Assembly (NCBI RefSeq): GCF_057098645.1 | Contig: NZ_CM169472.1 | Strand: one strand, 5' to 3' | DNA: 64,000 nucleotides | Part shown: positions 1-42,234 of the stretch, piece after piece | How the letters are laid out: every line of letters starts with the position of its first letter | Numbering within the stretch: position 1 is the stretch's first letter | The notes under the pieces: model-generated | Database searches by the model: none | Told to the model about the DNA's origin: nothing | What the model saw: only the letters and a program-made list of their open reading frames with translations | Program-made: the position numbers and the translations under genes

Positions 1-99
1 CGTGTTCAGTCCATTATTGATGATCTGCGCGATCAGATAGCCCTGCGGGTGACCGAAGCAGGTGCGGATGATGAGGAGGAATTACAGCAGGAGGAGTAA
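1..99 (+). CDS. Small terminase subunit, 3' end only (partial at window edge)
   Basis: Frame 1 is open from base 1 to TAA at 97-99 and ends in an acidic tail (DDEEELQQEE). The stop overlaps the large-terminase ATG as TAATG. Assignment rests on position alone. Confidence 0.4.
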   Translation, partial: RVQSIIDDLRDQIALRVTEAGADDEEELQQEE

Positions 100-2201
100 T
101 GCTGAATCAGGAAACCGCAAAGGCAGCACGAACCGATTCAGGTTATATCCTTCGCGCACCGAGACGAATGCTGGTTGCTGATGCCGTTGCTCAGTATATG
201 CGGGTGCCCATGGGGGCCGGGAATTCAGTCCCGTGGGATCCGCTGGTGGCACCGTATGTTATTGAGCCGATGAACTGCCTGGCCTCGCGTGAATACGACG
301 CAGTGATATTTGTTGGCCCGGCACGAACTGGCAAGACTATCGGCCTGATTGACGGCTGGGTGATTTACAATGTGATTTGCGATCCTGCTGATATGCTGAT
401 CATTCAGATGACGGAGGAAAAAGCCCGCGAACACTCCAAAAAACGACTTGCCAGAACGTTTCGCGTCAGCCCGGAAGTGGTCAGTCGCCTGAGTCCGAAC
501 AAAAATGACAACAACGTTTATGACAGAACATTCCTTGCTGGCAACTACCTGAAAATCGGCTGGCCGTCAGTCAATATCATGTCCTCATCAGATTATAAAT
601 GCGTGGCGCTGACGGATTATGACCGTTTTCCGGAAGATATTGATGGCGAGGGGGATGCCTTCTCTCTTGCCTCAAAACGTACCACCACATTTATGTCCAG
701 TGGTATGACGCTGGTGGAGAGTTCCCCCGGCAGGGATGTGAAGGATGTGAAATGGCGACGGACTTCACCGCATGAGGCTCCACCAACCACGGGGATACTG
801 TCGCTCTATAACCGTGGCGATCGCCGTCGCTGGTACTGGCCCTGTCCACACTGTGGTGAGTATTTTCAGCCCTGCGGCGATGTGGTTGCTGGTTTCCGTG
901 ATATTGCCGATCCCGTGCTGGCAAGTGAGGCGGCTTATATTCAGTGTCCTTCCTGTTCAGGACGGATTATGCCTGAACAAAAACGTGAGCTGAACGGACG
1001 TGGGGTCTGGTTGCGGGATGGTGAATCCATCAATGCGGATGGCAGTCGTTATGGTGATCCCCGACGCTCACGTATTGCGTCATTCTGGATGGAGGGTCCG
1101 GCAGCTGCTTACCAGACACTCTCGCAACTCGTTTACAAACTGCTTACTGCAGAACAGGAATACGAGACAACCGGAAGTGAAGAAACACTCAAGACGGTTA
1201 TCAATACCGACTGGGGATTACCTTATCTTCCCCGTGCCAGCATGGAGCAACGAAAAAGTGAACTGCTTGAGCAGCGGGCAGAGCCAGTTCCTTCCCGCAG
1301 TGTGCCGGATGGCGTTAATTTCCTGGTGGCGACAGTGGATGTGCAGGCGGGACGTCATCGCCGTTTTGTGGTTCAGGTAACGGGCTATGGCAGCCGTGGC
1401 GAACGCTGGATTATTGATCGTTACAACATCACGCAGTCATTGCGCGGTGACAGCGACGGGGAGAGCCAGCGAATTGATCCGGCCAGCTATCCGGAAGACT
1501 GGGATGTCCTGCTGACGGATGTTTTTCATAAAAGCTGGCCGCTGGCCTCCGATCCTTCTCAACAAATGCGACTGATGGCTATGGCGGTGGACTCCGGCGG
1601 TGAAGACGGGGTCACTGATAATGCCTATAAATTCTGGCGTCGTTGCCGTCGTGATGGCCTTGGTAAACGTATTTACCTGTTTAAGGGCGACAGCATCCGG
1701 CGCGCAAAACTGATCACCCGTACATTCCCTGATAACACCGGACGAACGGGCCGACGGGCGCAGGCCGCAGGTGATGTGCCGCTCTGGCTTCTTCAGACGG
1801 ATGCCCTGAAAGACCGGGTGAATAACGCGTTATGGCGTGACTCTCCAGGTCCCGGCTATGTGCATTTCCCTGACTGGCTGGGGAGCTGGTTTTACGACGA
1901 ACTGACGTATGAAGAGCGGAGTAGTGACGGGAAATGGAGTAAGCCGGGTCGCGGTGCCAACGAAGCTTTTGACCTGATGGTGTATGCCGAGGCTCTGGTC
2001 ATTCTGCATGGATACGAAAAGATCCGCTGGCCGGATGCACCGGAGTGGGCGAGCCTGGAAACCTGGCTGGAGTGTGTCCCGGACAGTACCGAACCGTCAC
2101 CCTCACCGGAACCGGTATCCACGCCTGTTAAAAAACAAAAACGGAAGAAAACAGTAACTGACGATGTTAACCCCTGGCTGACTTCCGGAGGATGGTTATG
2201 A
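99..2201 (+). CDS. Terminase large subunit, GpA family
   Basis: 700 aa ORF with a Walker-A-like motif VIFVGPARTGKT and a CPHCGEYF zinc-finger-like motif comparable to lambda gpA CPHCGEEQ. It is the first gene of the head module. Confidence 0.85.
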   Translation: MLNQETAKAARTDSGYILRAPRRMLVADAVAQYMRVPMGAGNSVPWDPLVAPYVIEPMNCLASREYDAVIFVGPARTGKTIGLIDGWVIYNVICDPADMLIIQMTEEKAREHSKKRLARTFRVSPEVVSRLSPNKNDNNVYDRTFLAGNYLKIGWPSVNIMSSSDYKCVALTDYDRFPEDIDGEGDAFSLASKRTTTFMSSGMTLVESSPGRDVKDVKWRRTSPHEAPPTTGILSLYNRGDRRRWYWPCPHCGEYFQPCGDVVAGFRDIADPVLASEAAYIQCPSCSGRIMPEQKRELNGRGVWLRDGESINADGSRYGDPRRSRIASFWMEGPAAAYQTLSQLVYKLLTAEQEYETTGSEETLKTVINTDWGLPYLPRASMEQRKSELLEQRAEPVPSRSVPDGVNFLVATVDVQAGRHRRFVVQVTGYGSRGERWIIDRYNITQSLRGDSDGESQRIDPASYPEDWDVLLTDVFHKSWPLASDPSQQMRLMAMAVDSGGEDGVTDNAYKFWRRCRRDGLGKRIYLFKGDSIRRAKLITRTFPDNTGRTGRRAQAAGDVPLWLLQTDALKDRVNNALWRDSPGPGYVHFPDWLGSWFYDELTYEERSSDGKWSKPGRGANEAFDLMVYAEALVILHGYEKIRWPDAPEWASLETWLECVPDSTEPSPSPEPVSTPVKKQKRKKTVTDDVNPWLTSGGWL

Positions 2202-2410
2202 ACCAGAATGATATCGAAGCCATGATTCAGCGTTATACGGAAGCTGAAATGGCGGTGCTGGACGGAAAATCCGTCACCTTTAATGGTCAGCAGATGACCA
2301 TGGAAAACTTATCTGAGATCCGGCAGGGACGGCAGGAGTGGGAGCGCCGCCTTGCGGCTCTGATTACACGACGACGGGGGCATCCTGGGTACCGGCTGGC
2401 GAGGTTCTGA
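2192..2410 (+). CDS. gpW-like head-tail joining protein
   Basis: 72 aa ORF directly after the terminase. Its C-terminus (TRRRGHPGYRLARF) resembles lambda gpW (QRRRGPAGFYV). Start overlaps the terminase end. Confidence 0.6.
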   Translation: MVMNQNDIEAMIQRYTEAEMAVLDGKSVTFNGQQMTMENLSEIRQGRQEWERRLAALITRRRGHPGYRLARF

Positions 2411-3918
2411 TGGCAATTCTTGATGATGTGATTGGCGTTTTTTCACCAGGATGGAAAGCGGCAAGGCTGCGTTCCCGTGCGGTGATCCAGGCTTATGAGG
2501 CCGTAAAAACGACACGGACACACAAAGCCCGGCGGGAAAACCGAACTGCCGACCAGTTAAGCCAGTACGGGGCCGTGTCGTTACGTGAGCAGGCCCGTTA
2601 CCTTGATAACAACCACGATCTGGTTATTGGTGTATTTGACAAGCTGGAAGAACGGGTGGTGGGGAAAAACGGGATTATTGTCGAGCCACATCCGGTATTA
2701 CGCAATGGGGCCATTGCCCGTGATCTGGCAGCGGAGATACGCACCCGATGGAGTGAATGGTCTGTCAGTCCGGAAGTCACCGGGCAGTTTACCCGTCCGA
2801 TGCTGGAACGTCTGATGCTGCGTACCTGGCTGCGCGATGGTGAGGTGTTTGCCCAGATGGTTTCCGGGCGCATAAACAGCCTGACGCCTTCTGCCGGTGT
2901 TCATTTCTGGCTGGAGGCGCTCGAGCCGGACTTTATTCCCATGACCAGTGATGAGAGCAACAGGCTGAATCAGGGCGTGTTTGTTGATGACTGGGGGCGT
3001 CCCGAAAAATATCTGGTGTATAAAAGCCGTCCCGTATCCGGGCGGCAGATGGAAACCAAAGAAGTGGATGCAGAGCGAATGCTGCATCTTAAATTTGTTC
3101 GCCGTCTGCACCAGATGCGCGGGACGTCTTTGTTGTCCGGTGTGCTGATCCGCCTCAGTGCCCTGAAAGAGTATGAAGATTCTGAGCTGACTGCAGCAAG
3201 GATCGCCGCTGCTCTGGGGATGTACATCCGGAAAGGCGACGGGCAGAGCTATGAACCGGATGGTAATGGCAGCAAGGAGAATGAACGCGAGCTTACCATT
3301 CAGCCAGGCATTATTTACGACGATCTGAAACCCGGCGAAGAAATCGGAATGGTGAAGTCGGATCGTCCCAATCCTAACCTTGAAACTTTTCGTAATGGTC
3401 AGTTGCGTGCCGTGGCGGCGGGCAGTCGTCTGAGTTTTTCCAGTACGGCACGCAACTATAACGGCACTTACAGCGCCCAGCGTCAGGAACTGGTTGAGTC
3501 TACTGATGGCTACCTGATCCTGCAGGACTGGTTTATTGGTGCCGTCACCCGCCCGATGTATCGTGCCTGGCTGAAACAGGCTGTGGCATCCGGTGTTATC
3601 AGGTTACCCCGCGATCTTGACCGTTCTTCACTGTATACCGCGGTGTATTCCGGACCAGTGATGCCGTGGATTGACCCTGTTAAGGAGGCTGAGGCCTGGA
3701 AAATCCAGATTCGTGGTGGAGCGGCGACAGAATCAGACTGGGTACGTGCTGGTGGTCGTAATCCGGATGATGTCAAACGTCGGCGCAAGGCCGAAATTGA
3801 TGAAAACCGCAAGCTGGATCTGGTATTTGATACCGATCCGGCCAGTGATAAAGGAGGCAGCAGTGCCGCAACGAAACGACAGGAGCCGCAGCACACCGAC
3901 GACCAGTCCGAAGAATAA
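2410..3918 (+). CDS. Portal protein
   Basis: About 502 aa, starting at ATG 2410, which overlaps the W-like stop (ATGA). Position after terminase and W, and size, fit a lambda-family portal. The ORF-track start at 2338 is probably an upstream extension. Confidence 0.75.
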   Translation: MAILDDVIGVFSPGWKAARLRSRAVIQAYEAVKTTRTHKARRENRTADQLSQYGAVSLREQARYLDNNHDLVIGVFDKLEERVVGKNGIIVEPHPVLRNGAIARDLAAEIRTRWSEWSVSPEVTGQFTRPMLERLMLRTWLRDGEVFAQMVSGRINSLTPSAGVHFWLEALEPDFIPMTSDESNRLNQGVFVDDWGRPEKYLVYKSRPVSGRQMETKEVDAERMLHLKFVRRLHQMRGTSLLSGVLIRLSALKEYEDSELTAARIAAALGMYIRKGDGQSYEPDGNGSKENERELTIQPGIIYDDLKPGEEIGMVKSDRPNPNLETFRNGQLRAVAAGSRLSFSSTARNYNGTYSAQRQELVESTDGYLILQDWFIGAVTRPMYRAWLKQAVASGVIRLPRDLDRSSLYTAVYSGPVMPWIDPVKEAEAWKIQIRGGAATESDWVRAGGRNPDDVKRRRKAEIDENRKLDLVFDTDPASDKGGSSAATKRQEPQHTDDQSEE

Positions 3919-3931
3919 TTCCTGGTTCAGG

Positions 3932-5890
3932 ATGCAGGCTGGTCACCAGAGTGACGCGGATATTTATATTTATGACGAGATTGGTTTCTGGGGTGTTACA
4001 GCGAAGCAGTTTATCAGTGATCTGAATGCACTGGGCGATATCACCCACATTAATCTCCATATTAATTCACCGGGTGGCGATGTCTTTGAAGGCATCGCCA
4101 TTTTTAATGCGCTGAAAACACATGGTGCGTCCATTACCGTTTATGTCGACGGTGTGGCGGCGTCAATGGCGTCGGTCATTGCGATGGTGGGAAACCCGGT
4201 CATTATGCCGGAAAACACCTTCATGATGATTCATAAACCATTTGGCTTTACGGGCGGTGATGCGGAGGACATGCGCACCTATGCCGACCTGCTCGATAAG
4301 GTTGAGGCGGTTCTGTTACCCGCTTATGCACAGAAAACCGGGAAAACCACCGATGAAATTGCTGCCATGCTGGCGGATGAGACCTGGATGTCCGGTGCCG
4401 AATGTCTGGCACATGGATTTGCTGATCAGGTAACGCCAGCCGTTAAGGCAATGGCATGTATTCAGTCAAAACGTACAGAGGAATTTAAAAAGATGCCGGA
4501 ATCCATTCGAAACATGATTACTCCGCCACGCAACAGTGCTCCACGCGTACAGGATGATGAACCTGCAGCCTCCCGGACGCCAGTGCAGGCAGCAGCACCC
4601 GTGGTGGATGAAAACAGTATCCGTGCGCAGGTACTGGCAGAGCAAAAAGCGCGTGTAAACGGTATTAATGATCTGTTTGCCATGTTTGGCGGGCGTTATC
4701 AGACGCTGCAGGCTCAGTGTCTTGCCGATCCTGAATGTTCGCTGGAGCAGGCCCGCGAAAAGCTGTTGAACGAGATGGGGCGCGAGTCCACGCCATCCAA
4801 TAAAAATACCCCGGCTCATATTTATGCCGGTAACGGTAATTTTGTGGGGGACGGGATCCGCCAGGCGCTGATGGCGCGTGCCGGATTTGAAAAAACCGAA
4901 CGTGATAATGTCTACAACGGGATGACCCTGCGTGAATATGCCCGTATGTCACTGACTGAACGGGGTATTGGGGTTTCCAGTTATAACCCGATGCAGATGG
5001 TCGGTGCGGCGTTCACACACAGTACGTCTGACTTCGGTAATATTCTGCTGGATGTTGCGAACAAAGCCATTCTGCAGGGCTGGGAAGATGCCCCTGAAAC
5101 CTATGAACAGTGGACGCGGAAAGGTCAGTTGTCTGATTTTAAAATTGCCCATCGTGTGGGTATGGGGGGCTTCAGTGCTCTGCGTCAGGTGCGTGAAGGG
5201 GCGGAATATAAATACGTCACCACCGGAGATAAACAGGCCACTATTGCACTGGCGACCTATGGCGAGCTGTTCAGTATCACCCGTCAGGCCATTATCAATG
5301 ATGATCTGAATATGCTGACCGATGTCCCGATGAAACTGGGCCGTGCGGCGAAATCCACTATTGCCGATCTGGTTTATGCCATTCTGACGTCTAACCCGAA
5401 AATCTCCACAGATAATGTAAGTCTGTTCGATAAAGCGAAACATGCAAACGTACTGGAGAGCGCTGCAATGGACGTGGCATCGCTGGATAAAGCCCGCCAG
5501 TTGATGCGCGTTCAGAAAGAGGGGGAGCGTCATCTGAATATTCGTCCTGCGTTCGTACTGGTACCGACGGCGATGGAGTCTGTTGCTAACCAGGTCATTC
5601 GCTCCTCAAGTGTCAAGGGGGCTGACATTAACGCCGGTATTATTAACCCGGTGAAAGATTTTGCGACCGTTATTGCAGAGCCTCGTCTTGATGATAACAG
5701 CCAGACCACTTTCTACCTGGCTGCGTCCAAAGGCTCCGATACGATTGAAGTGGCTTATCTCAACGGTGTGGATACGCCATATATTGATCAGATGGAGGGC
5801 TTCAGTGTGGATGGCGTGACAACGAAAGTGCGTATTGACGCCGGTGTCGCGCCAGTTGATCACCGCGGTCTGGTGAAATGTACGGCGTAA
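3932..5890 (+). CDS. Prohead protease (ClpP-like) fused to scaffold-like linker and major capsid protein domain
   Basis: Single uninterrupted frame. The N-terminal ~200 aa look like a ClpP/S14 peptidase (INSPGGDV, MASV.A, MIHKP). A charged Pro/Ala-rich linker follows, then a C-terminal ~330 aa capsid-like domain. Start chosen at the first ATG after the portal stop. Confidence 0.7.
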   Translation: MQAGHQSDADIYIYDEIGFWGVTAKQFISDLNALGDITHINLHINSPGGDVFEGIAIFNALKTHGASITVYVDGVAASMASVIAMVGNPVIMPENTFMMIHKPFGFTGGDAEDMRTYADLLDKVEAVLLPAYAQKTGKTTDEIAAMLADETWMSGAECLAHGFADQVTPAVKAMACIQSKRTEEFKKMPESIRNMITPPRNSAPRVQDDEPAASRTPVQAAAPVVDENSIRAQVLAEQKARVNGINDLFAMFGGRYQTLQAQCLADPECSLEQAREKLLNEMGRESTPSNKNTPAHIYAGNGNFVGDGIRQALMARAGFEKTERDNVYNGMTLREYARMSLTERGIGVSSYNPMQMVGAAFTHSTSDFGNILLDVANKAILQGWEDAPETYEQWTRKGQLSDFKIAHRVGMGGFSALRQVREGAEYKYVTTGDKQATIALATYGELFSITRQAIINDDLNMLTDVPMKLGRAAKSTIADLVYAILTSNPKISTDNVSLFDKAKHANVLESAAMDVASLDKARQLMRVQKEGERHLNIRPAFVLVPTAMESVANQVIRSSSVKGADINAGIINPVKDFATVIAEPRLDDNSQTTFYLAASKGSDTIEVAYLNGVDTPYIDQMEGFSVDGVTTKVRIDAGVAPVDHRGLVKCTA

Positions 5891-5976
5891 ACGTCGCAGA
5901 CAACAACTCTGATGGCCCGTAAGGGCTTTTTTTGTACCTGAAATCAGCCCCTGAACGGGGCTGTGCGGAGACAGTT

Positions 5977-6300
5977 ATGGCAAAGAATTTTGTAGAAGAA
6001 GGAAAAACGGTGGCGATTGTTGCCAGTGCAGCCATCAGCAGCGGAGATCTGGTGCAGGTGGGCGATGTTTTTGCGGTGGCGCTGACCGATATTCCACAGG
6101 GTGAAACAGGCGACGGCATGACCGAAGGTGTGTTTATGCTGCCTAAGCTGAAAACGGATGACATGAAAACGGGTAAGAAGGTTTATCTGAAGTCCGGAAA
6201 AGTTCAGCTGACTAACAGCGGCTCTGATCCGCTGGTCGGGGTTGTCTGGGCAGATGCCGGAACCAGTGCAGAAGAAGTGCCGGTAAAACTCAATGTCTGA
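5977..6300 (+). CDS. Small phage head protein (DUF2190-like, possible decoration or head-completion protein)
   Basis: 107 aa from ATG 5977, preceded by GGAG. Lies right after the capsid gene. Family assignment is from memory and is weak. Confidence 0.4.
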   Translation: MAKNFVEEGKTVAIVASAAISSGDLVQVGDVFAVALTDIPQGETGDGMTEGVFMLPKLKTDDMKTGKKVYLKSGKVQLTNSGSDPLVGVVWADAGTSAEEVPVKLNV

Positions 6301-6568
6301 TCCCTTTTCCCGGCTGGCAGCGCGTATGGATGCTATCACGGTCAGAAAGATGGGAAAGACAGCCTCGATTAATGATGTCGATATGACTGTGATCCCGGGA
6401 GAAACACTGGCAGAACTGAATGCTCTGTCCGGACCTGCGGTCTCTCTGGTGGTGTTTTCTTCGGGATACCGCCCACGGCGCGGGGATCGCGTTGTTTATG
6501 ACGGACAACAATGGACGGTCACACGGCATGAACGCTTTAACGGTAAGCCAATGATCTTTATTGAGTAA
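6293..6568 (+). CDS. Head-tail connector protein (gpFII-like)
   Basis: 91 aa, translationally coupled to the previous gene (ATG 6293 overlaps its stop). It sits between head and tail genes and has an RRGDRV motif similar to lambda FII RRGDTL. Confidence 0.5.
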   Translation: MSDPFSRLAARMDAITVRKMGKTASINDVDMTVIPGETLAELNALSGPAVSLVVFSSGYRPRRGDRVVYDGQQWTVTRHERFNGKPMIFIE

Positions 6569-6579
6569 AGAGGTGTGGG

Positions 6580-7158
6580 ATGAAGGGGCTTGAGAATGCC
6601 ATCCGTAATCTGAACAGCCTTGATACCCGTATGGTGCCACAGGCCAGCGCATGGGCGATAAACCGTGTGGCACAGAAAGCGGTCTCGGTTGCCACCCGGC
6701 AGGTTGCCGGGAATACCGTTGCGGGAGATAACCAGGTGAAAGGGATCCCCCTGAAACTGGTACGTCAGCGTGTCCGGGTGTTTAAAGCCAGTCCGTCAGG
6801 AAAAATGACGGCCAGGATCCGCGTTAACCGGGGCAATCTGCCCGCCATTAAGCTGGGGACAGCCCGGGTCAGACTGGCCCGGCGTGGTGGAAAACTGCAG
6901 TACCGTGGCAGTGTGCTGAAGGTGGGTAAATATCTTTTCCGGGATGCGTTTATTCAGCAACTGGCGAATGGTCGCTGGCATGTGATGCGGCGTATTGATG
7001 GCAAAAATCGTTACCCCATTGATGTGGTGAAAATCCCGCTTTCCGGACCGCTGACACAGGCATTTGAAGATGCCCGCGACCGCATCATTGCTGCGGAAAT
7101 GCCGAAACAGCTGGGGTATGCACTGAAACAACAACTGAGGTTATGGCTGACCCGATGA
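6580..7158 (+). CDS. Z: Tail completion protein Z
   Basis: 192 aa, the same length as lambda gpZ, with colinear similarity (NGRWHVM.R..GKNRYPIDVVKIP, LGYAL..QLR). Confidence 0.8.
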   Translation: MKGLENAIRNLNSLDTRMVPQASAWAINRVAQKAVSVATRQVAGNTVAGDNQVKGIPLKLVRQRVRVFKASPSGKMTARIRVNRGNLPAIKLGTARVRLARRGGKLQYRGSVLKVGKYLFRDAFIQQLANGRWHVMRRIDGKNRYPIDVVKIPLSGPLTQAFEDARDRIIAAEMPKQLGYALKQQLRLWLTR

Positions 7159-7556
7159 ACCGACATACACAAATCCGCCAGGCCGTACTGGCACGCCTTC
7201 GGGAACAGTGTGGAGACAGCGCCACGTTTTTTGACGGGCTTCCGGCATTTATTGATGCGCAGGAACTGCCTGCCGTGGCGGTGTGGCTGAGTGATGCTCA
7301 GTACACCGGAAAAATGACGGATGAAGATGACTGGCAGGCTGTTCTGCATATTGCTGTCTTCATCCGGGCACAGGCACCGGATTCAGAGCTGGATATGTGG
7401 ATGGAGAGCACCATTTTCCCGGCCCTGAATGATATACCGGCACTTTCCGGACTCATCGACACCCTGATCCCTCTCGGTTTTAACTATCAACGTGATAATG
7501 AGATGGCCACCTGGGCGATGGCGGAAATCACGTACCAGATCACGTACACGAATTAA
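7143..7556 (+). CDS. U: Tail terminator protein U
   Basis: 137 aa with lambda gpU-like motifs (ATFFDG, PAVAV.L, PDSELD.WMES, DIPALS). Confidence 0.8.
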   Translation: MADPMNRHTQIRQAVLARLREQCGDSATFFDGLPAFIDAQELPAVAVWLSDAQYTGKMTDEDDWQAVLHIAVFIRAQAPDSELDMWMESTIFPALNDIPALSGLIDTLIPLGFNYQRDNEMATWAMAEITYQITYTN

Positions 7557-7561
7557 AGGAG

Positions 7562-8311
7562 GTGGCAATGACCACACCAAATCCACTGGCAAAAACGAAA
7601 GGTGCGGGAACGACGTTCTGGATGTACACCGGCAAGGGCGATGCGTTTGCGAACCCTTTATCGGACACTGACTGGCTGCGTCTTGCGATGGTGAAGGATC
7701 TGCAACCTGGCGAAATGACCGCTGATGCAGAAGATGACACTTATCTCGATGATGAAGATGCAGACTGGAAAACGACAACCCAGGGGCAGAAATCCGTCGG
7801 TGATACTTCGGCGACGCTGGCCTGGCGTCCGGGTGACAGCGGGCAGAAAAAACTGGTTCAGTTGTTCGACTCCGGTGAAGTCTGCGCGTTTCGTATCAAA
7901 TATCCCAACGGCACTGTTGATGTTTTCCGTGGCTGGCTGAGCTCACTGGGTAAAACCATTGCCTCAAAAGACGTGATGACCCGCACAGTGAAAATCAGCG
8001 GTGTGGGGCGTCCGTATCTGGCAGAGGAAGGCACTGAAACAGTGAGCGTTACCGGGCTGACGGTGGCACCGGCATCTGCCAGTGTAAAAGTGGGAGCAAC
8101 CACCACGCTGACCTTTACAGTAAAACCTGACGGAGCCAGTGACAAAGCGATCAGTGTGCATTCGACAGATCCACAGACTGCCACGGTGACCCTGAACGGG
8201 CTTGTGGCCACGGTGAAAGGCGTGAAGCAGGGCAGTGTCAGCATTGTGGGCATGACTTCTGACGGCGATTTTGTGGCAGTGGCTGCGGTGGCTGTCAGCG
8301 CCGCAGGTTAA
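7562..8311 (+). CDS. V: Major tail protein V with C-terminal Ig-like domain
   Basis: 249 aa, near-colinear with lambda gpV (KGAGTT.W.Y.G, YLDDEDADW, FRGW.SS.GK). Strong SD AAGGAGG precedes the start. Confidence 0.9.
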   Translation: MAMTTPNPLAKTKGAGTTFWMYTGKGDAFANPLSDTDWLRLAMVKDLQPGEMTADAEDDTYLDDEDADWKTTTQGQKSVGDTSATLAWRPGDSGQKKLVQLFDSGEVCAFRIKYPNGTVDVFRGWLSSLGKTIASKDVMTRTVKISGVGRPYLAEEGTETVSVTGLTVAPASASVKVGATTTLTFTVKPDGASDKAISVHSTDPQTATVTLNGLVATVKGVKQGSVSIVGMTSDGDFVAVAAVAVSAAG

Positions 8312-8331
8312 CAGGACGATACTCATCATTT

Positions 8332-8355
8332 GCCCCGGTTATCCGGGGCTTTTTT
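8332..8355 (+). terminator. Stem-loop with T-run between V and G (possible attenuator)
   Basis: GCCCCGG-TTAT-CCGGGGC followed by TTTTTT, immediately after the V stop. Confidence 0.45.
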
Positions 8356-8368
8356 GCAGGTGGAGAAC

Positions 8369-8758
8369 ATGATGTTTCTGAAACAGGGCACGTTTAATTA
8401 TGAAAAGCAGTCCGTGGTGCTCAGTGAGCTGTCCGGGCTGCAGAGAATTGAATATCTGGCGTTTGTTCAGCAGCGAACGGCAAAGTTTGATGCCGAAGAG
8501 GGAGAACTGCCGGAGGCTGAACGACAGATTGCTTTTCTGCGGATGGGGATGGATATCAATGCCTGGCTGGTTTCCCGCTCACTGTGGAATGCGGAACAGT
8601 CTCAGGATGTTGAGACGCTTTGCGCATCCGTTATTACAACATGGTCGTATGATGCCCTGGGAGCGGGGGCGGAGATGGTTCTGTCGCTGAGCGGTATGGG
8701 AGCCATTGAGAATGCCGGGGATTTGGAGCATGAGGTGCTGACGCCGGAAAAGTCCTGA
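8369..8758 (+). CDS. G: Tail assembly chaperone G
   Basis: Start MMFLKQ parallels lambda G MFLKT, and the LSELSGLQRIEYLA motif matches. The ORF-track TTG start at 8330 lies inside the upstream hairpin and is rejected. Confidence 0.8.
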   Translation: MMFLKQGTFNYEKQSVVLSELSGLQRIEYLAFVQQRTAKFDAEEGELPEAERQIAFLRMGMDINAWLVSRSLWNAEQSQDVETLCASVITTWSYDALGAGAEMVLSLSGMGAIENAGDLEHEVLTPEKS

Positions 8759-12462: not shown

Positions 12463-12471
12463 GAGGCTCTG

Positions 12472-13170: not shown

Positions 13171-13175
13171 ATCCC

Positions 13176-13919: not shown

Positions 13920-14458
13920 AAACGGGGGCTGAAGCCATCCGCGCACTGGCCACACAGCTCCCGGCGTTTCGTCAGAAACTGAGCGACGGCTGGTATCAGG
14001 TACGGATTGCCGGGCGTGATGCAGGCGAAAATGAATTATCAGCCCGTCTTAATGAACCGCTGGCAAATGGTGCTGTGATCCATATCGTGCCGCGTCTGGC
14101 AGGAGCCAAAAGTGGCGGTGTGTTTCAGGCTGTGCTGGGGGCGGCTGTTATGGCGGTTGCTATATGGATGCCGGGGGTAGGAATTATGGCGAGTAATCTG
14201 CTGTTTTCTCTCGGTGCCAGTATGACGCTTGGCGGTGTTGCACAGATGCTGGCCCCTAAACCCAAAACCCCCCGCACACAGACAACGGATAACGGCAAAC
14301 AGAACACCTATTTTTCTTCACTGGATAATATGGTTGCCCAGGGCAATGTCCTGCCCGTTCTGTACGGTGAAATGCGTGTGGGGTCGCGGGTGGTATCTCA
14401 GGAGATCAGCACGGCAGATGAAGGTGATGGTGGTCAGGTTGTGGTGATTGGTCGCTGA
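13817..14458 (+). CDS. I: Tail tip assembly protein I
   Basis: 213 aa. Its N-terminus MAATHTLPLASPGMARICLYGDLQRFGRRIDLRV matches lambda gpI. It overlaps the K 3' end as in lambda. Confidence 0.85.
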   Translation: MAATHTLPLASPGMARICLYGDLQRFGRRIDLRVKTGAEAIRALATQLPAFRQKLSDGWYQVRIAGRDAGENELSARLNEPLANGAVIHIVPRLAGAKSGGVFQAVLGAAVMAVAIWMPGVGIMASNLLFSLGASMTLGGVAQMLAPKPKTPRTQTTDNGKQNTYFSSLDNMVAQGNVLPVLYGEMRVGSRVVSQEISTADEGDGGQVVVIGR

Positions 14459-14518
14459 TGAAAAATGTTTTATGTGAAACCGCCTGCGGGCGGTTTTGTC
14501 GTTTATGGAGCGTGACGA

Positions 14519-17500
14519 ATGGGTAAAGGCAGCAGTAAGGGGCATACCCCGCGCGAAGCGAAGGACAACCTGAAATCCACGCAGTTGCTGAGTGTGATTG
14601 ATGCCATCAGTGAAGGGCCGGTTGAAGGTCCGGTGGATGGATTAAAAAGCGTGCTGCTGAACAGTACGCCGGTGCTGGACAGTGAGGGGAATACCAACAT
14701 CGCCGGTGTCACGGTGGTGTTCCGGGCTGGTGAGCAGGAGCAGACTCCGCCGGAGGGATTTGAATCCTCCGGCTCCGAGACGGTGCTGGGTACGGAAGTG
14801 AAATACGACACGCCGATCACCCGCACCATCACGTCGGCAAACATCGACCGTCTGCGCTTTACCTTCGGTGTACAGGCACTGGTGGAAACCACCTCAAAGG
14901 GTGACAGGAATCCGTCGGAAGTCCGTCTGCTGGTTCAGATACAACGTAACGGTGGCTGGGTGACGGAAAAAGACATCACCATTAAGGGCAAAACCACCTC
15001 GCAGTATCTGGCCTCGGTGGTGGTGGGTAGCCTGCCGCCGCGCCCGTTTAATATCCGGATGCGCAGGATGACGCCGGACAGCACCACAGACCAGCTGCAG
15101 AACAAAACGCTCTGGTCGTCATACACCGAAATCATCGATGTGAAACAGTGCTACCCGAACACGGCACTGGTCGGCGTGCAGGTGGACTCGGAGCAGTTCG
15201 GCAGCCAGCAGGTGAGCCGTAATTATCATCTTCGCGGGCGCATTCTGCAGGTGCCGTCGAACTATAACCCGCAGACGCGGCAATACAGCGGTATCTGGGA
15301 CGGAACGTTAAAGCCAGCATACAGCAACAACATGGCCTGGTGTCTGTGGGATATGCTGACCCACCCGCGCTACGGCATGGGGAAACGTCTTGGTGCGGCG
15401 GATGTGGACAAATGGGCGCTGTATGTCATCGGCCAGTATTGCGACCAGTCGGTGCCGGACGGTTTTGGCGGCACGGAGTCGCGCATCACCTGTAACGCTT
15501 ACCTGACCACACAGCGTAAGGCGTGGGATGTTCTCAGTGATTTCTGCTCGGCGATGCGCTGTATGCCGGTATGGAACGGGCAGACGCTGACGTTCGTGCA
15601 GGACCGACCGTCGGATAAGGTGTGGACCTATAACCGCAGTAATGTGGTGATGCCGGATGATGGCGCGCCGTTCCGCTACAGTTTCAGCGCCCTGAAGGAC
15701 CGCCATAATGCCGTTGAGGTGAACTGGATTGACCCGAATAACGGCTGGGAGACGGCGACAGAGCTTGTGGAGGACACGCAGGCCATTCTCCGTTACGGTC
15801 GTAACGTCACGAAGATGGATGCCTTTGGCTGTACCAGCCGGGGGCAGGCACACCGCGCCGGGCTGTGGCTGATTAAAACGGAGCTGCTGGAAACGCAGAC
15901 TGTGGACTTCAGCGTGGGCGCAGAAGGGCTTCGCCATGTACCGGGCGATGTCATTGAAATCTGCGATGATGACTATGCGGGTATCAGCGTCGGCGGGCGC
16001 GTGCTTGCGGTAAACAGCCAGACCCGGACACTGACGCTCGACCGTGAAATCATGCTGCCATCCTCCGGAACCACGCTGATAAGCCTGGTTGACGGAAATG
16101 GCAATCCGGTCAGCGTGGAGGTCCAGTCCGTCACCGACGGCGTGAAGGTGAAAGTGAGCCGTGTTCCTGACGGCGTTGCCGAATACAGCGTGTGGGGGCT
16201 GAAGCTGCCGACGCTGCGCCAGCGCCTGTTCCGCTGCGTGAGTATCCGTGAGAACGATGACGGCACGTATGCCATCACCGCCGTGCAGCATGTACCGGAG
16301 AAAGAAGCCATCGTGGATAACGGGGCGCACTTTGACGGTGACCAGAGCGGCACGGTGAATGGTGTCACGCCGCCAGCAGTGCAGCACCTGACCGCCGAAG
16401 TCACTGCAGACAGCGGGGAATATCAGGTGCTGGCGCGATGGGACACACCGAAGGTGGTGAAGGGCGTGAGCTTCCTGCTCCGTCTGACCGTAACAGCGGA
16501 TGACGGCAGTGAGCGGCTGGTCAGCACGGCCCGGACGACGGAAACCACTTACCGCTTCACACAACTGGCGCTGGGGAACTACAGGCTGACAGTCCGGGCA
16601 GTAAATGCGTGGGGGCAGCAGGGCGATCCGGCGTCGGTATCGTTCCGGATTGCCGCACCGGCAGCGCCGTCGCGGATTGAGCTGACGCCGGGCTATTTTC
16701 AGATAACCGCCACGCCGCATCTTGCGGTTTATGATCCGACGGTACAGTTTGAGTTCTGGTTCTCGGAAAAGCGGATTGCGGATATCAGGCAGGTTGAAAC
16801 CACAGCACGCTATCTTGGCACGGCGCTGTACTGGATAGCCGCCAGTATCAATATCAAACCGGGCCATGATTATTACTTTTATATCCGCAGTGTGAACACC
16901 GTTGGCAAATCGGCATTCGTGGAGGCTGTTGGTCAGCCGAGTGATGATGCATCCGGTTATCTGGATTTTTTCAAAGGCGAGATAGGGAAAACCCATCTGG
17001 CTCAGGAGCTGTGGACGCAGATTGATAACGGTCAGCTTGCGCCTGACCTGGCTGAAATCAGGACGTCCATTACGGATGTCAGCAATGAAATCACGCAGAC
17101 CGTCAATAAGAAACTGGAAGACCAGAGTGCTGCAATTCAGCAGATACAGAAGGTTCAGGTTGATACAAATAATAACCTGAACAGCATGTGGGCTGTGAAG
17201 CTGCAGCAGATGCAGGACGGACGCCTTTATATCGCGGGTATTGGTGCCGGTATTGAGAATACCCCTGACGGCATGCAGAGTCAGGTGCTGCTGGCGGCGG
17301 ACAGGATTGCGATGGTTAATCCTGCGAATGGCAACACAAAACCGATGTTTGTTGGTCAGGGCGATCAGATATTCATGAACGACGTGTTCCTGAAACGCCT
17401 GACGGCTCCCACCATTACCAGCGGTGGAAATCCGCCGGCATTTTCCCTGACACCAGACGGAAAGCTGACCGCTAAAAATGCGGATATCAGCGGTAATGTG

Positions 17501-18001
17501 AATGCAAATTCAGGGACGCTCAACAATGTCACGATTAATGAAAACTGTCAGATTAAGGGGAAACTGTCAGCCAATCAGATTGAAGGCGATATTGTCAAAA
17601 CGGTCAGCAAGTCTTTCCCCTGCACGAACAGTTATGCCAGTGGCACCATCACGGTAAGAATCAGTGATGATCAGAAATTTGACCGGCAGGTCATGATACC
17701 GCCAGTGTTATTCCGCGGTGGTAAGCATGAGAATTTCAACAGTAATAACCAACAGTCATACTGGTATTCAACCTGCCGGTTAAGAGTGACCCGCAATGGT
17801 CAGGAGATTTTTAAGCAGTCCACGACGGATGCTCAGGGCGTATTTTCCTCAGTTATAGATATGCCTGCCGGACAGGGGACGCTGACACTGACATTCACCG
17901 TATCTTCATCAGGAGCGAATAACTGGACACCAACAACCAGTATCAGCGATCTGCTGGTTGTGGTGATGAAAAAATCCACAGCAGGTATCAGTATCAGCTG
18001 A
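14519..18001 (+). CDS. J: Tip attachment / host specificity protein J
   Basis: 1160 aa in the lambda J position after I, with SD GGAG upstream. Receptor specificity of the C-terminus cannot be assigned from sequence. Confidence 0.9.
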
Positions 18002-18019
18002 ATTTTATAACCCAGAACG

Positions 18020-18043
18020 GGCGTCAGAAATGACGCCTTTTTT
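18020..18043 (+). terminator. Rho-independent terminator after J
   Basis: GGCGTCA-GAAA-TGACGCC followed by TTTTTT. Confidence 0.7.
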
Positions 18044-18067
18044 ATTGCAGAAAAGCGAGAGGTAATT

Positions 18068-18667
18068 ATGCGTAAACTTTATGCCGCCATTTTGTCCGCA
18101 GCCATTTGTCTGGCCGTATCCGGTGCGCCTGCATGGGCGTCTGAACATCAGTCCACGCTGAGCGCGGGGTATCTTCATGCCCGGACGAACGTTCCCGGCG
18201 GTGATGATCTGAACGGGATTAACGTGAAATACCGTTATGAGTTTACGGACACACTGGGGATGGTGACGTCGTTCAGCTATGCAGGAGACAAGAATCGCCA
18301 GATTACCCGTTACAGCGATACCCGCTGGCATGAAGATTCCATTCGTAACCGCTGGTTCAGCGTAATGGCGGGGCCGTCTGTGCGCGTGAATGAATGGTTC
18401 AGCGCGTATGCGATGGCGGGTGTGGCTTACAGCCGTGTGTCGACTTTCTCCGGGGATTATCTCCGCGTAACTGACAACAAGGGGAAAAAGCACGATGTGC
18501 TGACCGGAAGTGATGACGGTCGCCACAGCAACACGTCTCTGGCGTGGGGAGCTGGCGTGCAGTTTAACCCGACCGAATCCGTGGCCATTGATGTCGCTTA
18601 TGAAGGCTCCGGCAGTGGTGACTGGCGCACTGACGGTTTCATCGTGGGTGTCGGTTATAAATTCTGA
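18068..18667 (+). CDS. lom: Lom outer-membrane protein (Ail/PagC/Lom family) moron
   Basis: 199 aa with signal peptide. The C-terminus [25 protein letters not shown] matches lambda Lom. Own SD GAGAGG. Confidence 0.85.
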
Positions 18668-18693
18668 TTAGCCAGGTAACACAGTGTTATGAC

Positions 18694-18720
18694 AGCCCGC
18701 CGGTTCAGGCGGGCTTTTTT
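18694..18720 (+). terminator. Rho-independent terminator after lom
   Basis: AGCCCGCC-GGTTCAG-GCGGGCT followed by TTTTTT. Confidence 0.75.
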
Positions 18721-18725
18721 GTGGG

Positions 18726-21700
18726 GTGAATATGGCAGTAAAGATTTCAGGTGTACTGAAAGACGGCACAGGAAAACCGGTACAGAACTGCACAATCCAG
18801 CTGAAAGCAAAACGTAACAGCACCACGGTGGTGGTGAACACGCTGGCCTCAGAAAATCCGGATGAAGCCGGGCGTTACAGCATGGACGTTGAGTACGGGC
18901 AGTACAGCGTTATTCTGTTGGTGGAGGGATTCCCGCCGTCACATGCCGGGACCATCACCGTGTATGAAGATTCCCGACCCGGTACGCTGAATGATTTTCT
19001 CGGTGCCATGACGGAGGATGATGCCCGTCCTGAGGCACTGCGCCGTTTTGAACTGATGGTGGAAGAGGTGGCGCGTAACGCGTCCGCGGTGGCACAGAAC
19101 ACGGCAGCCGCGAAGAAGTCAGCCAGCGATGCCGGCACATCAGCCCGTGAGGCGGCAACCCATGCGACTGATGCTGCAGGCTCAGCACGCGCAGCCAGCA
19201 CGTCAGCCGGACAGGCCGCGTCGTCGGCTCAGTCAGCGTCTTCCAGCGCAGGAACGGCATCAACAAAGGCCAGTGAAGCATCGAAAAGTGCTGCTGCTGC
19301 AGAGTCCTCAAAAAGCGCGGCGGCTACCAGTGCCGGTGCGGCGAAAACGTCAGAAACGAATGCTGCAGCGTCACAAAAATCTGCAGCCACTTCTGCATCC
19401 ACCGCGACCACGAAAGCGTCAGAAGCTGCCACCTCAGCCCGGGATGCAGCGGCCTCAAAAGAGGCAGCGAAATCATCAGAAACGAGCGCAGCCTCGAGCG
19501 CCAGTAATGCCGCTTCCTCGGCAACAGCGGCAGGAAATTCCGCGAAGGCGGCAAAAACGTCCGAGACGAACGCCAGGTCTTCTGAAACGGCAGCGGAACA
19601 GAGCGCCTCAGCTGCGGCAGACTCTGAGACAACAGCTGCATCATCGGCCCGTGAGGCGTCCATTAAGGCAGAGGAGGCAGCAGTCAGTGCCACCGCCGCC
19701 GGAAAATCGGCAGAAAGCGCCGCATCATCCGCTTCAACAGCCACAACGAAGGCTGGCGAAGCCACTGAACAGGCCAGCGCAGCAGCGAGGTCTGCTTCCG
19801 CAGCGAAGACATCCGAAACGAACGCGAAAGCGTCGGAAACCAGCGCAGAATCCTCAAAAACGGCTGCCGCATCGTCCGCCAGTTCGGCGGCGTCATCGGC
19901 ATCATCGGCGTCTGCTTCAAAAGATGAGGCGACCAGACAGGCGTCAGCAGCGAGGGGCAGCGCCACGACGGCATCCACGAAGGCGACAGAGGCTGCTGGC
20001 AGTGCGGCAGCGGCAGCACAGAGCAAAAGTACGGCAGAATCCGCAGCAACGCGCGCCGAGACAGCAGCAAAACGGGCAGAGGATATTGCATCCGCCGTGG
20101 CGCTTGAGGATGCGAGCACGACGAAAAAGGGGATAGTACAGCTCAGCAGTGCGACCAACAGCACTTCCGAGTCACTGGCGGCAACGCCAAAAGCCGTTAA
20201 GGCCGCGTATGACCTGGCTAACGGGAAATACACCGCACAGGATGCAACGACAGCACAGAAAGGGATAATCCAGCTAAGCAGCGCGACCAACAGCACGTCT
20301 GAAACGCTGGCGGCAACGCCAAAGGCAGTAAAAGCAGCCAATGACAATGCTGAGAAACGTCTGCAGAAAGATCAGAACGGTGCGGATATCCCTGGCAAAG
20401 ACACCTTTACGAAAAATATTGGTGCCTGCCGTGCCTTCGGTGGGTCAGTAAGCACAACAACAGGAAACTGGACGACTGCACAGTTTATCGAGTGGCTGGA
20501 TTCTCAGGGAGCATTTAACCATCCATACTGGATGTGCAAGGGTTCCTGGTCTTATGGCAATAATAAAATCATTACTGATACTGGCTGCGGTAATATTCAT
20601 CTCGCCGGAGCTGTCATTGAAGTAATGGGGATAAAGTCAGCGATGACGATCCGCATTACCACACCGACCACCTCCACTGGTGGTGGAACAACTAACGCCC
20701 AGTTTACCTATATTAATCACGGAACAGATTATTCACCTGGCTGGCGAAGGGACTATAACTCCAGAAATAAGCCAACGGCATCAGAGATCGGGGCGTTACC
20801 GTCAGGTGGAACAGCAGTATCATCAGTTAATCTGTCTTCAAAAGGTCGGGTAACCGCGCTGACAGACAATACGCAGGGGGCAACAGGTCTTGAGTTATAC
20901 GAGGTGTATAACAACGGATATCCAACAGCGTATGGAAATATCATTCACCTGAAAGGGATGACAGCCGTTGGCGAAGGTGAGTTACTCATCGGCTGGAGTG
21001 GTACAAGCGGTGCTCATGCTCCGGCATTTATTCGTTCACGACGGGATACGACCGACGCAAACTGGTCGCCGTGGGCGCAGCTTTACACCTCGGCTCATCC
21101 TCCTGCAGAGTTTTATCCAGTCGGTGCACCAATCCCGTGGCCATCAGATACCGTTCCGTCTGGTTATGCCCTGATGCAGGGGCAGACTTTTGACAAATCT
21201 GCTTACCCGAAACTTGCAGCCGCTTATCCGTCAGGCGTGATCCCTGATATGCGTGGCTGGACGATTAAGGGCAAGCCCGCCAGTGATCGAGCCGTATTGT
21301 CTCAGGAACAGGACGGCATTAAATCACACACCCACAGCGCCAGCGTATCCAGTACGGATTTGGGGACGAAAACCACATCGTCGTTTGATTACGGCACTAA
21401 ATCCACGAATAACACTGGTGCGCATACCCATAGTGTTAGCGGTACGGCTGCTTCAGCCGGTGCACATACCCATTCGATGACATTTGTTTCAGGTGGTTCC
21501 AGTGGTGCTCCGGGAAGTGGATCACCTGATTACTCTAAATACAGTGTTAACACTTCTTCTGCAGGCGCTCATACGCACTCTGTATCGGGTACTGCTGCAA
21601 GCGCAGGTGCACACGCACATACTGTCGGTATTGGTGCTCATACGCACTCCGTTGCGATTGGTTCACATGGACATACCATCACCGTTAACGCTGCTGGTAA

Positions 21701-21755
21701 CGCGGAAAACACCGTCAAAAACATCGCATTTAACTATATTGTGAGGCTTGCATAA
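18726..21755 (+). CDS. stf: Side tail fiber protein Stf (mosaic)
   Basis: 1009 aa. N-terminus [26 protein letters not shown] and the His-rich C-terminus ([55 protein letters not shown]) match lambda Stf. The middle carries an Ala/Ser-rich shaft and an extra Cys-containing domain. Confidence 0.85.
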
Positions 21756-22336
21756 TGGCATTCAGAATGAGTGAACAACCACGGACCATAAAAATTTATA
21801 ATCTGCTGGCCGGAACTAATGAATTTATTGGTGAAGGTGACGCATATATTCCGCCTCATACAGGTCTGCCTGTAAACAGTACCTATATTGCACCGCCAGA
21901 TATTCCGGCTGGTTTCGTGGCTGTTTTCAACAGTGATGAGTCATCGTGGCATCTCGTTGAAGATCATCGGGGTAAAACGGTTTATGACGTGGCTTCCGGC
22001 GACGCGTTATTTATTTCTGAACTCGGTCCGTTACCGGAAAATGTTACCTGGTTATCGCCGGAAGGGGAGTTTCAGAAGTGGAACGGCACAGCCTGGTTGA
22101 AGGATACGGAAGCAGAAAAACTGTTCCGGATCCGGGAGGCGGAAGAAACAAAAAACAACCTGATGCAGGTAGCCAGTGAGCATATTGCGCCGCTTCAGGA
22201 TGCTGCAGATCTGGAAATTGCAACGGAGGAAGAAATCTCGTTGCTGGAAGCATGGAAAAAGTATCGGGTATTGCTGAACCGTGTTGATACATCAACTGCA
22301 CCTGATATTGAGTGGCCAGCAGCACCTGTAGGATAA
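21755..22336 (+). CDS. tfa: Tail fiber assembly protein Tfa
   Basis: 193 aa, near-identical to lambda Tfa as I recall it ([39 protein letters not shown]). Confidence 0.9.
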
Positions 22337-22436
22337 AACAAAAACTTTATATAGAGTGCTCTTTTTACAATGTCAGATAAATGCTGGCCGAAATGTAATT
22401 CATTAGAAGTAAAAAACAGAATGGTTTGAGGGTGTG

Positions 22437-22480
22437 TCATCCCTTTATTATTAATAGTGAAAGGGATGACATTCTTTTTT
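22437..22480 (+). terminator. Rho-independent terminator downstream of tfa
   Basis: 11-bp stem GTCATCCCTTT / AAAGGGATGAC with a 12-nt loop, followed by ATTCTTTTTT. Confidence 0.7.
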
Positions 22481-23078: not shown

Positions 23079-23213
23079 GTCCCAGTCATTGAGTAATCTT
23101 TTCGTGATATGCCGCAGAAACGTTGTATGCAGGAACGTGCTGCGGCTAACTGGTGAACTTTCGATAGTGCGGGTATTGAATGATTTCCAGCCGTTACCGA
23201 TTTTACGTGCTAA

Positions 23214-42186: not shown

Positions 42187-42234
42187 CGCATTCAGCGCAT
42201 ATTTAGCAAATTACGTAATGGGTTCCTCGCGCGA

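Follow-up and report, generated by a model that had tools for sequence, protein, structure and literature searches.

In lambdoid phages, including mEp460, the head and tail modules are separate (PMC9836094), and the combination of a Gifsy-2-like fused protease-coat head with a lambda-like tail is an arrangement already described in the literature (PMC12315714). In Gifsy-2, autoproteolysis strips off the protease and scaffold and leaves the mature capsid protein, in the account of Effantin et al., 2010 cited in PMC12315714. The closest relatives of the locus described here are mEp460 (NC_019716), mEp460_ev081 (LR597641) and Ayreon (MF807953). A further relative, cdtI (NC_009514), shares the head and tail modules. 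Gifsy-2 itself (NC_010393, Salmonella) arranges its genes identically, small terminase through Tfa, and serves as the reference for the tripartite protease-scaffold-capsid gene. Its own features are lom and sodC genes that separate M from L, a broken J and another attachment site. Lambda (NC_001416) has the late-operon architecture, the TerL and portal families and the order of Z to Tfa in common with the locus.

We analysed a 64-kb stretch of an Escherichia coli chromosome (64,000 nucleotides; the window). We assign positions 1–23,743 to the late-gene (virion) half of a lambdoid siphovirus prophage that sits in the 5′ end of prfC and is of the mEp460/cdtI/Ayreon type (probability roughly 0.93). 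The window starts inside the prophage, as the initial annotation had said: its first bases fall within the small terminase gene, and the cos site and the remainder of that gene lie upstream. A complete late-gene array occupies the plus strand from 99 to 22,336, with TerL, adaptor, portal, protease-capsid, cement and FII-like genes followed by Z-U-V-G-T-H-M-L-K-I-J-Lom-Stf-Tfa (Table 1). All 20 structural ORFs are full length. Tail gene families are matched above cut-off for Z to Tfa (PF06763, PF06141, PF16461, PF06894, PF06223, PF06791/PF09718, PF05939, PF05100, NlpC/P60+JAB, PF06805, NF049904, PF06316, PF08400 and PF02413), and order and strand from Z to Tfa match lambda when the ORF map is set against the lambda annotation. 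Long antisense and alternative-frame ORFs in J, L/K and stf were set aside, as they have no Pfam matches above cut-off.

Table 1. Features of the prophage segment and its right end (window coordinates; identities are to the named phage).
Feature	Position	Strand	Evidence
Small terminase 3′ end (DUF1441 family)	1–99	+	RefSeq annotation of 100%-identical locus
Large terminase TerL, GpA family	99–2201	+	PF05876 E 1e-72; PF20454 E 1e-85
Small head-tail adaptor, position of lambda W	2198–2410	+	phrog_118 head-tail adaptor, E 8.5e-37
Portal, lambda family, deeply diverged	2410–3918	+	PF05136; TIGR01539 portal_lambda 456 bits (cut-off 172.7 bits)
Protease-scaffold-capsid fusion, single 675-aa ORF	3863–5890	+	PF00574; PF25209; NF045540
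Capsid cement/decoration protein (DUF2190), 107 aa	5977–6300	+	PF09956 E 9e-21; phrog_122 head decoration
FII-like head-tail joining protein, position of lambda FII	6293–6568	+	PF13856 (Gifsy-2 family) E 1.8e-17
Tail completion protein Z	6580–7158	+	PF06763; 50% lambda Z, 43% Gifsy-2
Tail terminator U	7155–7556	+	PF06141; 54% lambda, 52% Gifsy-2
Major tail tube protein V, C-terminal Ig-like domain	7568–8311	+	PF16461; PF02368; 55% lambda, 69% Gifsy-2
Tail assembly chaperone G	8372–8758	+	PF06894; 33% lambda
Tail assembly chaperone T	8767–9096	+	PF06223; 38% lambda
Tape measure protein H, 1021 aa	9068–12133	+	PF06791; PF09718; PF24622
Tail tip protein M	12133–12462	+	PF05939; 56% lambda, 62% Gifsy-2
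L	12472–13170	+	PF05100; 93% aa to lambda
Lambda-like DNA block	12550–17000	+	~90–100% nt identity, divergent patch 14,000–14,200 (50-bp scan against lambda)
K	13176–13919	+	97% aa over lambda's annotated 199 aa
I	13856–14458	+	80% aa to lambda
Tail tip/host specificity protein J	14519–18001	+	NF049904 2385 bits (cut-off 1950)
Ail/Lom outer-membrane protein	18068–18667	+	PF06316 E 2.5e-119; 47% lambda Lom, 93% mEp460
Side tail fibre Stf, intact, 1007 aa	18732–21755	+	PF08400; PF03406; PF07484
Tail fibre assembly protein Tfa	21755–22336	+	PF02413; 94% aa, 93.5% nt to lambda orf-194
Low-GC (~37%) insert with 65-aa ORF (22479–22676, minus strand)	22337–22996		Composition
Second tfa 3′ end remnant	22997–23148	+	81% to lambda 22457–22609
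DinI-like gene	23214–23462	-	PF06183 E 1e-19; phrog_189
Phage-borne replacement prfC 5′ end, closing in att core	23682–23743	+	attR
Rejected ORFs, GC-rich coding by-products	15308–16996	-	No Pfam match above cut-off
	12523–13449	-	No Pfam match above cut-off
	19229–20347	-	No Pfam match above cut-off
	19129–20136	+	No Pfam match above cut-off

The three closest phages share gene order with the locus at 97–98% nucleotide identity over 85–96% of window positions 1–22,400. For mEp460_ev081 the figures are 97% DNA identity and 96% coverage of bases 1–22,340, and for Ayreon and mEp460 they are 97–98% across 85–86% of the region (Ayreon alone, 97.8% across 86%). Proteins from TerL to M, together with L and K, are 95–100% identical to mEp460. 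The three phages differ from the locus in the C-terminus of J, the middle of Stf, Tfa and the insert at 22,337–22,996; mEp460 itself also lacks an intact tfa after stf and has a different integrase region. The match to cdtI (95.7% nucleotide identity over 83% of the region) stops at window position 19,081, leaving the distal tail-fibre region unshared, and the window, unlike cdtI, has neither a cdt toxin nor effector cargo. Of 5,426 complete E. coli genomes, 1,691 contain at least 80% of the region, and two of these hold 100%-identical prophages. The prophage is thus an ordinary member of a common, already described E. coli type, and its mosaic structure adds nothing new.

The right boundary had been drawn at 22,336, the end of tfa. 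We find that the prophage extends ~1.4 kb further, to attR, and that its true right end is at 23,743. attR consists of the 14-bp core ATTATTTCTCACCC (23,730–23,743), and the core ATTATTTCTCACCC is common to attR and to the attL of the 100%-identical prophage in a proxy genome, NZ_CP063511.1. An intact copy of the rebuilt attB occurs in 4,717 of 5,426 genomes, with identity up to 100%. The rebuilt attP is contiguous in the free phages Ayreon, 2H10 and cdtI (96–98%; 98.1% for Ayreon and 95.9% for the prfC-type attP of cdtI). A tyrosine integrase would insert the phage at the 5′ end of prfC, with the phage supplying a substitute prfC start. Between tfa and attR, two LexA-box consensus sites (23,478–23,493 and 23,506–23,521) lie upstream of the DinI-like gene and are the only matches to CTGT-N8-ACAG in the 64-kb window.

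The same interval holds two marks of past rearrangement. The tfa remnant, which is contiguous with mEp460 22,777–23,309 at 88%, is a scar from an earlier tail-fibre module exchange. The 660-bp insert (22,337–22,996) lies between tfa and attR, where morons are classically located. It is the only element of the prophage to lack a counterpart among 50,697 sequenced phage records, and 585 of 5,426 E. coli genomes carry it. Its 65-aa ORF has no Pfam or PHROG match. We regard it as a long shot that the insert specifies a hitherto undescribed function in lysogenic conversion or phage defence, confined to some of the prfC prophages.

The upstream half of the element lies outside the window and was read from the proxy strain, EH08-18-36, whose flanking chromosome is only ~98.5% identical. 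Coordinates of NZ_CP063511.1 were rejected for the window beyond the prophage, where identity is 98–99% and window positions 41,902–46,026 are missing. In the proxy, the upstream half contains an integrase, CI-like and Cro-like regulators, replication genes, Q, lysis genes and the small terminase, none with a pseudogene flag. In NZ_CP063511.1, and thus outside the window, a tyrosine recombinase (WP_021537116.1) is encoded ~230 bp away from the attL core. The proxy annotation lists no excisionase.

Defective lambdoid prophages are numerous in E. coli. This one might likewise be cryptic, with intact-looking structural genes and with excision or particle formation lost; only half of the element is visible in the window, the proxy has no annotated excisionase, and the right arm is scarred by the tfa remnant and the low-GC insert. 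We consider this unlikely. The structural ORFs are uninterrupted, and 17 of the encoded proteins are 93–100% identical to those of the plaque-forming phage mEp460 (83–86% for I and J, with partial matches for Stf and Tfa). The attL and attR cores are intact, the attP is of the type found in Ayreon and cdtI, and the proxy's upstream half carries its integrase, repressor, replication, Q and lysis genes free of pseudogene flags. The prophage therefore appears to be intact, with the completeness of the window's own copy extrapolated from the proxy genome.

The head module has the features of the Gifsy-2 type: a tripartite ORF preceded by TerS, TerL, adaptor and portal genes and followed by cement and joiner genes. 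It is syntenic with Gifsy-2 NC_010393 18,181–25,267, and each head protein is 45–70% identical to its Gifsy-2 counterpart. The tripartite ORF encodes a ClpP-like prohead protease (PF00574, residues 31–191) and an HK97-fold capsid domain (PF25209, residues 375–672), with a linker or scaffold between them. It scores 985 bits against NF045540 (cut-off 475 bits) and is 69.6% identical at the amino acid level to the Gifsy-2 tripartite gene. Among the best 60 matches listed in a sequence search of solved structures, the fusion protein matched cellular ClpP chains only (residues ~54–196), and the capsid domain drew no match. The cement protein is 60% and the adaptor 48% identical to Gifsy-2. The FII-like protein also matches the lambda FII family (PF05354, E 0.0018), below threshold.

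That this is a lambda-like prophage with a non-lambda head, as proposed in the initial annotation, is borne out. Alignment of the head genes revealed no near-identity to lambda, and positions 1–6,900 have no nucleotide similarity to it. BLAST found no lambda match for the fusion, cement or FII-like proteins, none between the adaptor and lambda W, and no counterpart of lambda C, Nu3, D, E or FI in the head region. In the window a ClpP-type protease forms one protein with the capsid domain, whereas lambda has an S49 protease, C, with a nested Nu3. The proposal that terminase, portal and protease-capsid all belong to a different lineage is right for the last and too broad for the other two. TerL is 24% identical to lambda A, 70% to Gifsy-2 and 99.4% to mEp460, and the portal is 22% identical to lambda B and 64% to Gifsy-2. 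Judged by their profile matches, TerL (with GpA ATPase and nuclease domains) and the portal are deeply diverged members of lambda's own families. True replacements are limited to the protease, scaffold, capsid and decoration genes.

Gifsy-2, cdtI, mEp460 and Stx phages all combine this type of head with the proximal tail, from Z to M. Identities to lambda run from 25 to 56% for V, G, T, H and M, and those to Gifsy-2 from 52 to 69%. H is 25% identical to lambda, 60% to Gifsy-2 and 99% to mEp460, and is 168 aa longer than lambda H (853 aa). At the nucleotide level, 6,907–8,028 is 66% identical to lambda. By these comparisons, the distance of Z to M from lambda equals or exceeds that from Gifsy-2. 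Frame analysis puts T in frame -1 relative to G. Within their 25-nt overlap lies a candidate slip site, G_GAA_AAG (8,746–8,752), which differs by one base from lambda's G_GGA_AAG; the exact lambda heptamer GGGAAAG is absent from the G/T junction. A G-T fusion may arise through -1 frameshifting at the candidate site.

Phages that match only from ~6,907 (ev099, mEp332 and the PhiR series) were considered as lambda-headed carriers of the same proximal tail and rejected. By annotation and coverage, ev099 is lambda-like throughout and covers 39% in 9 pieces, in the same patches as lambda. A suspected head/tail joint in Z thereby lost this support.

Identity to lambda changes abruptly at ~12,550, just inside L, and again at ~17,000, in J. 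Between these points the DNA is closely lambda-like (89.4% by blastn over 11,995–17,015), and residues 1–800 of J are 96–99% identical to lambda. The L, K, I and J proteins are nearer to lambda (80–99%, for J over residues 1–800, a range that also takes in Tfa) than to Gifsy-2 (65–77%). Nucleotide identity to lambda above 85% within Z to Tfa is confined to ~12,550–17,000, 18,540–19,622, 21,123–21,401 and 21,606–22,329; at a threshold of 85% or more, lambda-like DNA makes up only roughly 40% of 6,580–22,336. The distribution of identity points to an apparently recent exchange with lambda-type DNA that spans ~12,550–17,000 (from L into J, as far as residue ~825) and also takes in tfa and the 5′ part of stf. 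The three reference genomes compared would fit an L-J transfer either way, from lambda-type DNA into this lineage or the reverse, and at more than one date.

An exchange point had been placed at 5,900–6,580, between the small head genes and Z. That interval is where gene-by-gene lambda homology becomes readily recognisable and is not a recent exchange point, because Z to M is remote from lambda and travels with the Gifsy-2-type head. Since V to M is nearer to Gifsy-2 than to lambda, the real junction with lambda-like DNA is at ~12,550. The description of Z through Tfa as close lambda homologues accordingly fits L, K, Tfa and J residues 1–800; it does not fit Z, U, V, G, T, H, M or Lom (identities in Table 1 and above), J residues 801–1160 (36–78%) or the Stf mosaic (61–67%). 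It is very improbable that the element is in essence a lambda prophage with lambda's entire tail, from Z to Tfa, and a single replacement of the head at 5,900–6,580. By BLAST, gene-for-gene lambda homology does start at Z, the head lacks nucleotide similarity to lambda, and near-identity to lambda extends over L, K, Tfa and most of J. Against this reading, identity to lambda is no more than 25–56% for Z, U, V, G, T, H and M, most of 8,030–11,995 lacks lambda nucleotide similarity, identity rises only at ~12,550, and the head recurs together with Z to M in other phages.

The receptor-binding end is composed differently again. The C-terminal third of J, from ~17,000, is a non-lambda allele, and its last 328 aa are 99% identical to phage Chlobot and 88% to phage 21. 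Stf is intact here and split in lambda PaPa. It is lambda-like at its 5′ and 3′ ends (87% nucleotide identity at 18,540–19,622 and 86% at 21,123–21,401) and different in the middle. No tandem repeats were found as a source of the high GC and AT skew of stf at 19–20 kb.

We propose that the virion genes of this mEp460/cdtI/Ayreon-type prophage have three layers of ancestry. The Gifsy-2-type head and the proximal tail from Z to M would have been inherited as one block. The tail-tip block of L, K, I and J residues 1 to ~825 would be a recent swap with lambda-type phages through homologous recombination. The receptor-binding end (J C-terminus, Lom, Stf and Tfa) would itself be pieced together: Tfa and portions of Stf resemble lambda, and the J C-terminus is a non-lambda allele. 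By the Gifsy-2 precedent, the fused precursor would co-assemble, its own ClpP domain would cleave off the protease and scaffold, and the cement protein would then stabilise the mature capsid protein left behind.

The value of these results lies mainly in correct annotation, with recombination joints at ~12,550 and 17,000 and a right end at 23,743. Lysogens express prfC from the 5′ end that the phage supplies. The locus also illustrates lambdoid mosaicism, in which a Gifsy-2-type head and proximal tail are followed by a tail tip like that of lambda, with independent swaps of the receptor-binding parts. Integration at prfC, where lambda uses attB (gal-bio), sets it apart from lambda as well.

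Alignment of the window with the lambda reference (NC_001416), at both the DNA and the protein level, detected no nucleotide similarity to lambda anywhere in positions 1–6,900. The large terminase (TerL) and the portal share 24% and 22% amino acid identity with lambda A and B, respectively. BLAST found no match between the adaptor, fusion, cement or joiner proteins and lambda W, C, Nu3, D, E, FI or FII. These results bear out the initial annotation, made from sequence only, in its view that the head is not lambda's; alignment revealed none of the near-identity between head genes that would contradict it. The suggestion that the terminase and portal belong to a different lineage fits their low identity to A and B (only 22–24%) but not their family membership, as both still fall in lambda's own families (TIGR01539 for the portal). 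TerL and the portal are very old relatives, not unrelated replacements.

The prophage encodes a fused protease-capsid protein with a ClpP-like protease at residues 31–191 and an HK97-type capsid domain at residues 375–672. Protease-capsid fusions have their own NCBI family model. The domain architecture and family membership of the fused gene, and the synteny with Salmonella phage Gifsy-2 (NC_010393), are evident at the sequence level. By extension from Gifsy-2 work (Effantin et al., 2010, as cited in PMC12315714), the fused precursor would assemble into proheads, the ClpP-like domain would cut off itself and the scaffold segment, and the expanded shell would be decorated by the cement protein. 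All structural ORFs are intact. Long opposite-strand ORFs within J, L/K and stf lack family support and are considered spurious.

Prophage features in the window, with amino acid identity to lambda for tail proteins
Feature	Position	Strand	Identity to lambda or other detail
Small terminase, 3′ end	1–99	+	
GpA-family large terminase (TerL)	99–2,201	+	
Head-tail adaptor	2,198–2,410	+	70 aa
Lambda-family portal	2,410–3,918	+	
Fused protease-capsid ORF	3,863–5,890	+	675 aa; NF045540, 985 bits (cut-off 475)
Cement/decoration protein	5,977–6,300	+	
Joiner in FII position	6,293–6,568	+	
Z to Tfa, in the order below	6,580–22,336	+	
Z			50%
U			54%
V			55%
G			33%
T			38%
H			25%
M			56%
L			93%
K			97%, across lambda's annotated 199 aa
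I			80%
J residues 1–800			96–99%
J residues 801–1160			36–78%
Lom			47%
Stf			61–67%, two ends only
Tfa			94%
Second tfa 3′ end, remnant	22,997–23,148		81% to lambda 22,457–22,609
DinI-like gene	23,214–23,462	−	
prfC	starts 23,682		

Among the tail proteins, identity to lambda varies greatly. The earlier description of the tail as nearly lambda's holds for L, K, I, J residues 1–800 and Tfa (80–99%), but not for Z through M (25–56%), Lom or the remainder of J. In a 50-bp scan, identity climbs from ~60% to >90% at ~12,550, ~80 nt inside L, and drops at ~17,000, about J codon 825; a divergent patch in I (14,000–14,200) interrupts this lambda-like stretch. Lambda-like DNA makes up ~40% of the Z–Tfa interval. 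The proposed exchange point at 5,900–6,580 is thus not a recent recombination joint, but the place where lambda homology becomes visible by eye.

Gifsy-2 has exactly the same gene order from small terminase to Tfa. Head proteins are 45–70% identical to Gifsy-2 (fusion protein, 69.6%), versus none to 24% for lambda. V, G, T, H and M also favor Gifsy-2 (52–69% versus 25–56%), Z and U are about equidistant (43–52% versus 50–54%), and L, K, I and J favor lambda (65–77% versus 80–99%). Based on these identities, the head and proximal tail through M act as a single block, inherited together in the Gifsy-2/cdtI/mEp460 lineage and present in Stx phages as well (~76% nucleotide identity). The block from L to the N-terminal part of J, together with Tfa, appears to have been recently exchanged with lambda-type phages. 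Phages matching only from ~6,907 were considered as lambda-headed carriers of this tail and rejected; they are lambda-like throughout and match in lambda-like patches only.

This arrangement is already known. Lambdoid phages combining Gifsy-2-like heads (protease and coat fused) with lambda-like tails have been explicitly described (PMC12315714), head and tail modules are independent in lambdoid phages, with mEp460 a model genome (PMC9836094), and nothing here deviates from these descriptions. The initial annotation stands in part, as observation and as interpretation.

The C-terminal receptor-binding region of J is not lambda's allele; it shares 99% identity with phage Chlobot and 88% with phage 21. 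The phage probably uses a receptor other than LamB, the one used by lambda. Frame analysis places T in the −1 frame of G across an overlap at 8,734–8,758. The overlap contains a candidate slip site, G_GAA_AAG (8,746–8,752), one base off lambda's G_GGA_AAG, and a −1 frameshift may join G and T.

The prophage does not end with tfa at 22,336, as first proposed, but continues to an att core at 23,730–23,743. A 660-bp insert of low GC (~37%) lies between tfa and the tfa remnant (22,337–22,996). It has no counterpart among 50,697 phage records, whereas 585 of the 5,426 E. coli genomes carry it, in most cases with 80–90% identity. Its minus-strand ORF (22,479–22,676) encodes a 65-aa protein, beginning MDGESFNFDNTDIEF, with no Pfam or PHROG match. 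Adjoining the remnant, 23,111–23,206 is 91% identical to the lambda b-region (24,161–24,256); both segments are scars left when a tail-fibre module was replaced earlier. The only two matches to the LexA box consensus (CTGT-N8-ACAG) in the 64-kb window (23,478–23,493 and 23,506–23,521) lie side by side directly upstream of the DinI-like gene, which suggests that the prophage dinI is under SOS control.

The upstream half was read from E. coli EH08-18-36 (NZ_CP063511.1), a proxy strain in which the chromosome around the prophage matches the window at only ~98.5% identity. There the prophage is ~42.5 kb long, and its far end carries the anticipated integrase (a tyrosine integrase) and attL, with a 69-nt native prfC start fragment beside yjjG. 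It also carries genes for replication and lysis, for regulators resembling CI and Cro, and for RusA, Q, a methylase and the small terminase, none of those listed being flagged as a pseudogene in the annotation. Alignment of the ends defines a 14-bp common core, ATTATTTCTCACCC. Upstream of the core, window prfC residues differ from native MTLSPYLQEVAKRR, with six of the first eight substituted. The phage thus replaces the first 21 codons of prfC (23,682–23,743) as well as its promoter, and lysogens express RF3 from a phage-supplied start. Reconstructed sites support this replacement: 4,717 of 5,426 genomes carry an uninterrupted attB (some matches 100%), and attP is contiguous in the free phages Ayreon and 2H10 (98.1%) and cdtI (95.9%).

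Outside the prophage, the window is unremarkable E. coli chromosome that carries prfC, osmY, the deo operon, serB, radA, nadR, ettA, cre genes and arcA and is 99.9% identical to O145 strains. These strains carry another prophage at the same prfC site, with the DinI/attR end in common. They also share a 4.1-kb accessory islet in the nadR–ettA interval (41,902–46,026), missing from EH08-18-36, that encodes a DUF1471 protein, an SRPBCC protein, an SDR oxidoreductase, an aldo/keto reductase and a LysR regulator. Short repeats at 28,644–28,831 and 50,283–50,368, which intergenic chromosomal regions of the window have in common (82–95% identical, both orientations) and which appear only as secondary BLAST hits, are probably REP/BIME-type.

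Window 1–22,400 is 100% identical to chromosomal segments in EH08-18-36 and YPE10, and at least 80% of it is found in 1,691 of 5,426 complete E. coli genomes. Top matches among sequenced phages are mEp460_ev081 (97.0% identity, 96% covered), Ayreon (97.8%, 86%), mEp460 (NC_019716; 97.3%, 85%) and cdtI (NC_009514; 95.7%, 83%). This prophage type is thus very common and has been sequenced before. The adjoining chromosome (23,112–47,400) is closest to O145 cattle strains (99.9%) and only ~98.5% identical to EH08-18-36. One prophage therefore occupies different backbones, a distribution consistent with its recent horizontal spread.
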